Source: Eledone cirrhosa
Taxonomy: Eukaryota
Assembly: GCA_964016885.1 (NCBI GenBank)
Contig: OZ024740.1
Coordinates: forward strand, 389,484,001 to 389,548,000
Direction: 5' to 3'
Length of the DNA: 64,000 nucleotides
Shown: positions 18,369-26,086 of the stretch, piece after piece
Position numbering within the stretch: the first letter of the stretch is position 1
Layout: every line of letters begins with the position of its first letter
The notes under the pieces: generated by a model
What the model was told of the DNA's origin: nothing
What the model saw: only the letters and a program-made list of their open reading frames with translations
The model's database searches: none
Program-made: the position numbers and the translations under genes

Positions 18369-21300
18369 ATAAAATATTAAACAAATAATGAATAAAACAA
18401 TGAAACAGTTCCTTATATTAAACAAAAAAAGTTCATTATTTAACGATCGTTTCTAGGATATATATGTGTTAGAATTGGCATGCATATTCAACAGATCTAT
18501 GTACAAAATTATACAAAATTATACAAACTATCAAGATTAAATATACATACCAAACACACATATACGCCGTCTTCAGAAATAATGAAATATATTTATTGAT
18601 AATAACAACAATTCAAAATTTCAGGTCCGTTTGGGAACAAAATTGACCAATGAAAATACAAAAGGTTTTATGCAGTTTGGTGTGTGTATATACATGTAAC
18701 TACCCCGTACACATATTTATACAAAGATGTATGCTCAACATGCATACGCATGCCAAAAAGATGCATGCAAATACAAAATTTCAAGGTTAATGTCTCTGTA
18801 AGTTTATAATGCACAGATAAGATGCGTATAGACACATAAATATGAAATAAGTGTATACACATATTCTCATACTCACACATATCCGTACACTCACACACAC
18901 GCGCGCGTATATGCATAAACATACACATAATTACGAACATACATACACACACACACCCCCACACACACATATATATGTGGATATAATATTATCATAAGCA
19001 CATGGATATTAATTCACTCACATAAACACTGCCACACACATTTAGATCAAGATACAGAAATTAGGTGGGAGGGGGGGGAGAGGTCAGTATTCAACGGTTT
19101 GGGCAGACTGCTTATTTATAGATGTATCTATAAACTAAGAAATAAAAAATAAAAATTAAAAAGGAAAGAAAAGAAAAAGAAAAAAGAAAAAAGAAATATA
19201 TCAAGAAAATATATATATATATATATATATACACATATATATATATATATATATATATATATACATATACACACATCTACACTTAGAACACACATACACA
19301 CACATATATAAACATATACATATACACACATACACACATATACACACATACATATAAATATATATATATATATATATATACACACATATATACACATATA
19401 ATCACACATACATATATAGACACACATATATATACACATACACGCACATATACATACACATACATACTTATATACATACAGATATACACATACATACCTA
19501 TATATACACACAAATACATACAGACATACATACATACATACACACAAATACTTACGCATCCATATATCGGTATATACATACAAACACCACTACACTCTCA
19601 CACAACTCAGACATACAAAGAAAAAGGTATATACCTATACACATATACACATACAAATAGAGATACATATACATATATATATATATATACACATATATAT
19701 ATATATATATACATACACATATACACACATATATATACATACACATACATACATGTACACACACATACATATACATACATACACACATACACACATACAT
19801 ATATAGTCATACACACACATACACCTACACGAACATACACATACACATATATAAAGATATATATACACACACACACATACACACACACACATATATATAA
19901 AATAAAGATATATATATATATATATATATATATATATATATATATATATATATATATATATATATATACATACACATATACATAGACATATATGTACATA
20001 CATACACATACATACATACATATACACACATATATATATATATATACACATAGACACATACATACATACACACACAACATACATACACACACATATATAC
20101 TCATACATAGACATAGATATATATTCATACATACATACGCACTTACATATACTCATATATACAAATACATACGCATCCATATATGCGTATATACATACAA
20201 ACACCACTACACTCTCACACAACTCAGACATACAAAGAAAAAGGTATATACATATACATATATACACACATTAATAGAGATACATATACACATATATATA
20301 TATATATATACACATACATTTATATATATACACCCACACACACATACAACCATAAACACACATACAAACACACACATACACACATATATACATACATATA
20401 TATACACACACACAAAAAACACACATACACATATATATTTTTACACACATATATACATATATATACATATACACACCCTCACATATACACACATACACAT
20501 AAGTTATATTATAATAATAAATAATATATATATATATATATATATATACACATACGAATATAGACATATATACACACATAGATATACATATATATATATA
20601 TATACACACACACACACACACACTCACATATATATGTGCGCACACGTACATATATACACATACACACATATACACATAAACATATACATGTGCATACATG
20701 TACATACACACATATACCCACATAGATACGAAGATAGACATATATATAGAGAGACATACATATATATACACATATCTATATATACACATACATACACACA
20801 TACATATATATATATATACACACACACATACACGCCCACACACATATATATACACACACAATCTTACATTCTTATTTGCATGCGCATATATGTATTTTTA
20901 TATTCAGATATAAATACCCAAACATATATACACCTACCTACATATATATTCATACATTCACGCTTACATACACAGATGATAATAGTATGGGGGAAAGGGG
21001 GGGGGGGAGAAGGGGATTATAGTAAATATATGTTTCAAGAAACATAGAATATTATCTGTATCTGGATCCCAATATATGTTTTTACATAGTTTCAGTGTTA
21101 GGAAATACAAGAAATAAGGCAAAATTATGCATTTCAAAATAAGTATACCATTAATTATATGTTAACTAAACTAAAGATAGTTAACATATTGATTTCTAAG
21201 GTGTAAATTAGTTAGGTTTATAATATTTGAAGCAGAATTTTGAAGTTAAATAGTAGTAGAGTATTAATTATAGTATAACTAAATTAAAGTTATTAACGTT

Positions 21301-21899
21301 ATGGTATCAATATTAGGAAATGAATTTAGTAATAGGGAAAAAACAAATAAAGTATTACATCGGTAGTAGAATATAAATTATAGGTTAACTAAATTAAAAA
21401 TTATATATTAATTTCTATAGTATATGTTAATTAGGTATATAATAAATAAAACAGATATTGTATTTTATCAATAGCAGAATATAATTATATGCAAATAGAA
21501 ATCAAAATTAATACATATACATATACATATACATACACATATATATATATATATATATATATATATATATATATATATATATATATATATATATATATAC
21601 ATATACACACATACATACACATACATATACATACATACATATACATATTTTTTCAAAAATTGCAAAGAATATATTAACTAGGTATACATCCAAAACACAT
21701 CCCATTCTATGATTACATGACACTCTGCAATCCGTCTGTATAAGGATACTAATTTTAAGCCAATTAAATTAAATTTTTAGGTTGACTAAATTTAAAACCA
21801 AATTATAAATATATTTCTAAAATGTATATTAATTAGGTCTATAATACTAAAAAATATTTCTCTGTCATTGGATACACGATATTTTGTTATATTTTATCT
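18369..21899 (-). repeat. Left arm of giant inverted repeat (3' UTR/pLTR of Penelope-like element)
   Basis: Reverse complement of 22320-25952 throughout. Mostly (TA)/(CA)/(TACA) microsatellite with unique anchors. Confidence 0.95.
18432..18586 (-). ncRNA. Hammerhead ribozyme with long stem II (left-arm copy)
   Basis: Inverted copy of 25735-25889. Confidence 0.75.
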
Positions 21900-25300: not shown

Positions 25301-26086
25301 AGTGAATTAATATCCATGTGCTTATGATAATATTATATCCACATATATATGTGTGTGTGGGGGTGTGTGTGTGTATGTATGTTCGTAATTATGTGTATGT
25401 TTATGCATATACGCGCGCGTGTGTGTGAGTGTACGGATATGTGTGAGTATGAGAATATGTGTATACACTTATTTCATATTTATGTGTCTATACGCATCTT
25501 ATCTGTGCATTATAAACTTACAGAGACATTAACCTTGAAATTTTGTATTTGCATGCATCTTTTTGGCATGCGTATGCATGTTGAGCATACATCTTTGTAT
25601 AAATATGTGTACGGGGTAGTTACATGTATATACACACACCAAACACTGCATAAAACCTTTTGTATTTTCATTGGTCAATTTTGTTCCCAAACGGACCTGA
25701 AATTTTGAATTGTTGTTATTATCAATAAATATATTTCATTATTTCTGAAGACGGCGTATATGTGTGTTTGGTATGTATATTTAATCTTGATAGTTTGTAT
25801 AATTTTGTATAATTTTGTACATAGATCTGTTGAATATGCATGCCAATTCTAACACATATATATCCTAGAAACGATCGTTAAATAATGAACTTTTTTTGTT
25901 TAATATAAGGAACTGTTTCATTGTTTTATTCATTATTTGTTTAATATTTTATCTTGACTCTGTATACCGTTTATCTTTCACCGAAAGTGATTTTTCATTA
26001 CATCTCTTCTTTCCATGATATCCGGAATACATTGAGTTCTTCATACGGATTGGACACTACCGTAAACTCTTGGTAGATTTATCTAC
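22320..26086 (+). repeat. Right arm of giant inverted repeat plus ~135 bp extension
   Basis: Inverted copy of 18369-21899 up to 25952. 25953-26086 continues in family sequence also seen (reverse complement) at 55581-55718. Confidence 0.92.
25735..25889 (+). ncRNA. Hammerhead ribozyme with long stem II
   Basis: ttcattattt CTGAAGA [116 nt; tatatgtg/cacatata] GAAA cgatcg TT aaataatgaa. 10-bp stem I, palindromic stem III. Confidence 0.78.

Follow-up and report, generated by a model that had tools for sequence, protein, structure and literature searches.

Oppositely paired 3' ends in a putative Hydra-type Penelope-like element family of Eledone cirrhosa point to twin-primed palindromic insertion

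Penelope-like elements (PLEs) are already known to form inverted copies and one-sided tails, to target (TA)n and to carry hammerheads, and the origin of their inverted repeats and one-sided tails has been named as an open problem (PMC8557442; here and below, papers are cited from their accessible portions). The closest described systems are the Hydra-clade EN+ PLEs with a C-terminal endonuclease, Hydra-1_Obim and Penelope-13_HM among them, which share with the family described here the RW(R/K), DKT, CxCx5C, CxxC and CxH motifs, the absence of CCHH and the (TA)n target; the hammerhead predicted here resembles theirs in its extra bases next to the core. Penelope-13_HM also carries a 966-bp inverted 5'-truncated copy, like the inverted arms of this family (PMC8557442). 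The 27 Hydra families listed there measure 1.08-3.05 kb, against 6.05-7.2 kb here, where the UTR extends over ~3.5 kb and is about half microsatellite; the tail is 134 bp long rather than the 30-40 bp given for PLEs, and the stem II region of the predicted hammerhead comprises 116 nt compared with roughly 10-25 nt in Hydra elements (PMC8557442).

Poseidon PAc of Anolis, a PLE of another clade, cleaves and extends both strands in vitro, and its reverse transcription has two starting points, between which the tail lies (PMC11167929). The present family resembles it in having two fixed, putative start sites that bound the tail and an AT-rich target, but the start sites of PAc lie inside the ORF, whereas here the start codon lies 287 nt downstream of one site (site A) and 153 nt downstream of the other (site B); the assignment of one site to each palindrome arm, made here, is not made in the accessible part of that paper. 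Pen1/Pen2 of Adineta vaga (PMC3846280) and Penelope of D. virilis (PMC2377424, PMC3681739) are alike in their inverted pLTR, one-sided tail and variable large inverted repeats, and siRNA from the inverted regions is described for them, in Drosophila from Penelope inverted repeats (PMC3681739). These elements are of low copy number, whereas thousands of ends were found here, and the 0.9-1.5 kb spacer ahead of the 3' pLTR of Pen1, itself a likeness, is unrelated between copies (PMC3846280), whereas the spacer here is fixed across subfamilies. In penaeid shrimp, from which Penelope-borne SSRs have already been reported, microsatellites likewise travel with recent copies and change length afterwards, but palindromic doubling is not described in the part of that paper that was accessible (PMC7878876).

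The insertion and its family

Self-BLAST of the window, by which we mean the whole 64,000-nucleotide stretch analysed, returned reverse-complement arms at 18369-21899 and 22320-25952 as one large inverted repeat, in agreement with the original prediction. That prediction had ended the element at 25952, but the right arm runs a further 134 bp (the tail) to 26086, giving a whole insertion of 7,718 bp; the first 38 bp of the tail were identical in 40/40 among the genomic matches listed, and the tail stops at the same base in other genomic copies. The features of the locus are as follows.

18327..18368, no strand: left (TA)n target microsatellite (nearly all copies are flanked by TA-rich repeats)
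18369..22314, minus: arm A, a 5'-truncated copy (ORF end, 3' UTR, pLTR) that ends at site A and is tail-less
18432..18586, minus: mirror predicted hammerhead motif of the left arm (descriptor)
19209..20858, minus: main compound microsatellite block of the left arm, with a private 96-bp deletion near 20849
21511..21648, minus: short compound microsatellite of the left arm
22104..22314, minus: end of the RT/GIY-YIG ORF, ~70 codons with the stop (CxxC, E, N and part of CxH)
22315..22319, no strand: 5-bp junction filler, within a short local snap-back
22320..26086, plus: arm B, 5'-truncated 3' UTR and pLTR, ending at site B and tailed
22571..22718, plus: short compound microsatellite of the right arm
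23373..25111, plus: main compound microsatellite block of the right arm
25735..25889, plus: predicted type I hammerhead motif with a 116-nt stem II region and predicted cleavage after 25879 (descriptor, fold)
25738, plus: putative capped transcription start, initiator-like, mirrored at 18583 on the minus strand (suggested by a 5'-end pile-up and an extra G)
25953..26086, plus: 134-bp tail, from site A (25952) to site B (26086)
26087..26186, no strand: right target, (TA)n then (GA)n

Global alignment of the two arms identified 8 substitutions and 11 indels, including the substitution foreseen at ~19569 versus ~24746 (19570 C / 24746 T). An indel of ~70 bp had been noted near 23390-23470; the indel is real, but it measures 96 bp, the largest in the alignment, and lies at 23384-23479. 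Segment sizes in 46 arms identified it as a deletion present only in the left arm (102 bp, versus 180-202 bp in the 45 other arms). Outside microsatellites and homopolymers, 2 of 1,384 sites differed between the arms, and both differences were private to the right arm (found in 0/52 and 0/58 other arms). The left copy contains 420 bp without a counterpart in the right arm, and the right copy 134 bp without a counterpart in the left; because each arm holds sequence that the other lacks, neither was copied from the other here.

The 420-bp spacer consists of the last ~70 codons of the ORF, ~200 bp of 3' UTR and the 5-bp filler. Its coding remnant (aa 741-813, stop at 22104-22106 on the minus strand) is 93% identical to the intact ORF of genomic copy L106, so that the GIY-YIG C-terminus proposed for the spacer is there as terminal codons, but the GIY and YIG motifs themselves are missing from it. 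The RT is missing at this locus and the insertion is a dead copy, ordinary within its family, of which sister palindromes extend to 11-14 kb. What had been described as an inverted pLTR of 3.5 kb is indeed inverted, but what each arm copies, with 5' truncation, is the entire 3' region, and the pLTR proper is likely ~350 bp; moreover, the tail rule makes the left copy, not the right one, the inverted copy.

A first search of the 3.0-Gb genome gave 1,712 candidate places for the spacer, and the match was 99-100% in all 40 that were scored. The unit, delimited in a tandem array, comprises a 153-bp leader after site B, the ORF and ~3.9 kb of 3' sequence that starts with degenerate repeats of the ORF end; tandem periods ranged from 6,054 to 7,196 bp (n = 15), longer than the <3 kb that is typical, though not strictly required, of Hydra elements. 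The single ORF was intact (813 aa) in L106 and L185, and 4 of 13 ORF copies had gained one base in an A run. In L106 it carries an RDD catalytic motif for the RT and, at the C-terminus, a nuclease region of GIY-YIG type that aligned to 10 homologues; a Pfam search of the ORF returned nothing significant, and the domain names rest on motifs. RWR at 37-39, DKT in place of DKG, a CxCx5C linker, and CxxC and CxH flanking E and N with CCHH absent from the homologue alignment, together with terminal ends in (TA)n, fit the published description of the Hydra clade (PMC8557442), and by this motif match, as opposed to a tree, we classify the element as a young Hydra-type PLE. The Penelope-like identity originally proposed was likewise borne out by the ORF motifs, the partial tandems (pLTR), the inverted 5'-truncated copies and the tail at one end. 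Naiad/Chlamys elements were rejected, since they have an N-terminal GIY-YIG and the nuclease region here is C-terminal, as was a MITE or foldback DNA transposon, which needs symmetric fixed TIRs, whereas here A and B ends differ and the inner limits vary by copy. A multi-kb, microsatellite-rich Hydra family was not found in the open literature, and Repbase, Dfam or subscription papers may hold one.

The leader after site B (L062:1094-1246) contains a possible ~70-nt intron with donor- and acceptor-like motifs, as in Penelope, and a ~370-bp internal inversion in the microsatellite block is present in units L061-L064 (C1, 126.83 Mb) and in L137, inherited along the tandem. Elsewhere in the window are a decayed Hydra-type PLE at ~32970-34983 (plus; 45% to this ORF, ~300-bp 3' region, (TA)n end) and a third 5'-truncated Hydra-type fragment at 35065-36480 (plus) immediately after (TA)n. 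The latter contains, at 35327-35541, one copy of a ~200-bp dispersed, SINE-like repeat of which there are at least 9 copies in both orientations (also 36611-36801, 37524-37733, 45747-45898, 47966-48173, 51139-51320, 52381-52575, 56268-56447 and 56730-56922). A Rep/helicase remnant with stops and frameshifts (15297-18070, plus), which from its motifs we take to be Helitron-like, and a 92-bp end with ATG repeats (18237-18328, matching 62911-63002) lie to the left of the insertion, the latter directly beside it. Other features include an RTE-like LINE remnant (57299-60044, minus, together with the 92-bp end just named), an ORF at 50017-50664 (minus) presumably related, by its motif, to the restriction-like endonuclease of CRE-type LINEs, a 70-bp minisatellite (26565-26903) and three local direct duplications of 0.3-0.5 kb (8225-8623/10007-10394, 10462-10962/11847-12340 and 30900-31218/31328-31648).

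Two 3' ends and their pairing

Terminal ends of the family fall at sites A and B, beside TA-rich repeats, with 2,244 exact genome matches for site A and 4,496 for site B; read-through of site B into a next unit gave 321 exact matches. In a first set of 40 loci picked by best identity, 30 had a single A terminus and, on the other strand, a single B terminus, and none had AA or BB, the remainder showing only B (6), only A by exact match (2) or none in view (2). Of the 45 A ends in an unselected list drawn from the first 97 Mb of one chromosome (C1), 33 paired head to head within a limit of 20 kb, as did 33 of its 100 B ends, compared with chance pairing of ~0.01 per end; pair spans ranged from 84 bp to 14.5 kb, and 2 A-A and 1 B-B facing pairs were also present. 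Among the 67 unpaired B ends, 32 were inspected and 14 had a close variant A partner, a further 5 distant partner matches not being accepted. We estimate the two-armed share at ~60%; against the pairing rule, about one third of tailed ends were without an inverted partner and some A ends were unpaired. Folding gave no support for a stable structure at sites A and B (z -1.6). The window holds another two-armed copy of this family, older and 246 bp long, at 55581-55826, with its B arm on the minus strand and its A arm on the plus strand, between (TA)n runs.

Possible routes to the palindrome

In L1 twin priming, both target strands prime cDNAs, which are joined by microhomology to give a 5' inversion, and non-overlapping parts are copied from a variable internal primer; here, by contrast, each cDNA would begin at a fixed site and the two would cover one and the same region, which makes the product palindromic. 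We consider it probable (about 0.7) that the locus is one young insertion, two 5'-truncated head-to-head copies in (TA)n, in which each cut strand primed a cDNA on RNA from one donor. The element's enzyme would cut both DNA strands and each strand would prime its own cDNA, one from site A, the other from site B, after which both cDNAs would stop early and be linked through end joining that uses microhomology or leaves a short filler. Palindromes of ~550 bp would result where priming occurs close to the RNA's capped 5' end, and multi-kb ones like this where templates are long, and as each long arm would copy the microsatellite block, a two-armed insertion would double it.

Directly joined A|B pairs were found 57 times among 101 loci, 29 of them long, a set that under-samples diverged long copies, several of which were dropped by BLAST filters. 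The A arm reached further 5' in 15 of the long pairs and the B arm in 13, with 1 tie, the two arms being truncated independently at their 5' sides; junctions (n = 32) comprised 10 overlaps, 4 blunt joins and 18 with filler or a nearby mismatch. Arm divergence was 0.15% within a locus versus 0.39% between loci, and minor alleles were common to both arms. Haplotype sharing points to one donor (arm-to-arm conversion could give the same) and led us to reject two donors per insertion. Priming inside the microsatellite through (TA)n pairing was also rejected: 40 of 41 copies run through the block, and thus the start sites are not set by long (TA)n pairing.

The other 28 of the 57 joined pairs were under ~600 bp. 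The last 515 bp contain the starts of 90 arms, 42 of which begin within 14 bases around the equivalent of 25738, and there were 898 exact palindromic joins at this base, with varied junction sequences. A non-native G preceded it 219 times, against 14 times two bases further in (control); among local arms starting there, G was present in 7 of 21 and templatable in 3 of those 7, so that part of the excess can be templated by the opposite arm. Cap-derived extra G is seen in L1 cDNAs and, by analogy, the cap is the likely source of the extra G here. In the first-set loci, a second, small cluster of 5'-truncations (5 arms within 18 bases, ~25684-25701) precedes the likely start by about 40-55 bp. 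PMC4209133 notes pairs of hammerheads on opposite strands, separated by 100-700 bp, which are probably the short class in another genome.

The original prediction of a hammerhead at each arm end was matched by a descriptor search, which recovered both plus one weak unrelated match, with 0 in 20 shuffled windows; on the other side, Rfam gave no hammerhead among 142 matches at E<=5, just microsatellite-driven miRNA matches below gathering scores, and the 116-nt stem II is atypically long. The motif has a 10-bp stem I, an intact core and a palindromic loop III, and its region folds at z -6.4. In its core, stem I, loop III and additional flanking bases the motif agrees with the Hydra motifs listed in the PMC8557442 supplement, in which extra bases beside the core and a U at the cleavage site are common, but its stem II is unlike them. 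In reads from relatives the cleavage base has an A variant and stem II is shorter. The decayed PLE, an element of the usual short form, has a compact hammerhead near 34851-34885.

A real possibility is that two-ended priming took place on hammerhead-cut circular or multimeric RNA, or with pLTR strand transfer, a reading that changes the template and keeps the geometry. A linear RNA running from the start to site B predicts upstream pLTRs beginning at the start site; among 40 read-through copies, taken from the 321 along C1 and C2 with one per array, none did so, 28 running on past the start site, 11 being scattered and 1 unaligned. Because 0/40 begin at the start site, long arms are likely derived from multimeric, circular or strand-transferred templates, and this is in keeping with the tandem periods (15, of 6.05-7.2 kb), with 2 genomic ends that fall precisely on the predicted cleavage site and with a published circle model (PMC4209133). 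A preprint (10.64898/2026.07.22.740005) concerns tandem retrozymes. Those 2 ends compare, however, with 6,740 at sites A and B, and cleavage was dispensable in vitro for another PLE (PMC11167929).

Self-priming, in which the end of an antisense RNA or of the first cDNA folds over and primes a copy that becomes the second arm, has been proposed for PLE head-to-head repeats (PMC3846280), and the short snap-back at this junction and the near-perfect apex of many short palindromes would fit it, but we regard it as improbable: it needs one arm to lie inside the other, whereas among 28 informative long pairs the tail-less arm reached further 5' in 15, the present locus being one of them. Its simple form is thus contradicted at about half of the loci and would need an added template switch, and junction sequences vary widely. 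Two independent opposite insertions in one microsatellite, or a later rearrangement with gene conversion, are very unlikely; (TA)n is reusable as a target and nested or adjacent copies exist, but pairing far over chance, the A-with-B asymmetry, direct head-to-head joins and common haplotypes speak against them.

Least credible of all is an assembly artefact from a fold-back chimeric read, for while 4 read runs yielded neither a read nor a contig across the junction of this locus (sampled individuals may not carry the insertion) and part of the microsatellite length differences may be consensus error, a chimera would give neither one arm a native 134-bp tail nor the other a 96-bp deletion, nor would it repeat the same A/B rule across thousands of loci, and the end and join types recur in independent Illumina data (413 reads in which (TA)n follows site A; one contig with an inverted join at 25738). 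The original case against a read artefact therefore stands, on the tail, the private deletion and the A/B rule.

Returning to twin priming, we put forward its fullest version tentatively and hold it doubtful as a whole: a dimeric enzyme might prime one cDNA per strand at two fixed sites, the ~900 short palindromes might be strong-stop-like products, pLTR transfer in the fashion of retroviruses might yield tandems and multi-kb arms, and most insertions might be palindromes of <=14 kb that double their microsatellite cargo. A genome-wide analysis of A/B ends or of the start site was not found in the open literature, and subscription papers may hold such an argument.

Microsatellite cargo and wider meaning

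Alternating purine/pyrimidine microsatellite accounted for about 3,526 of the 7,718 bp of the insertion, versus ~3% of the rest of the window. The main block measured 1.6-2.0 kb across 47 arms, and the same microsatellite, sought in other copies as had been suggested, was carried by 40 of 41: that number of copies with the upstream anchor had the downstream anchor 1.9-2.4 kb away. The block is a constitutive part of the family, and with facing copies of the downstream anchor at 27 of 62 loci, both carriage and doubling of the microsatellite, as first proposed, hold. The further proposal of a route to genome-wide SSR expansion survives in part: carriage is real, but the contribution is minor, since exact anchor matches across the genome (161 and 353) correspond to ~0.3-0.7 Mb and even 2,000 arms would add <4 Mb, or roughly 0.3-4 Mb of 3 Gb for the family. 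One copy that has diverged still encodes a nearly identical protein, but its microsatellites are reshaped, and thus the cargo is inherited and fast-mutating. A promoter lies in the Penelope pLTR (PMC2377424), and promoters here are likely at the outer ends of the insertion, facing outward; hairpin dsRNA would therefore need read-through from a flank.

The family more than doubles the size listed for Hydra-type elements, and its thousands of young, precisely ended insertions have a geometry that separates twin priming from the published self-priming idea. It links the in vitro PLE result to genomic structure, and the genome would serve as a test bed for PLE insertion. By our estimate the family would seed on the order of 2,000-3,000 palindromes, which would matter for assembly, genome stability and small-RNA silencing.
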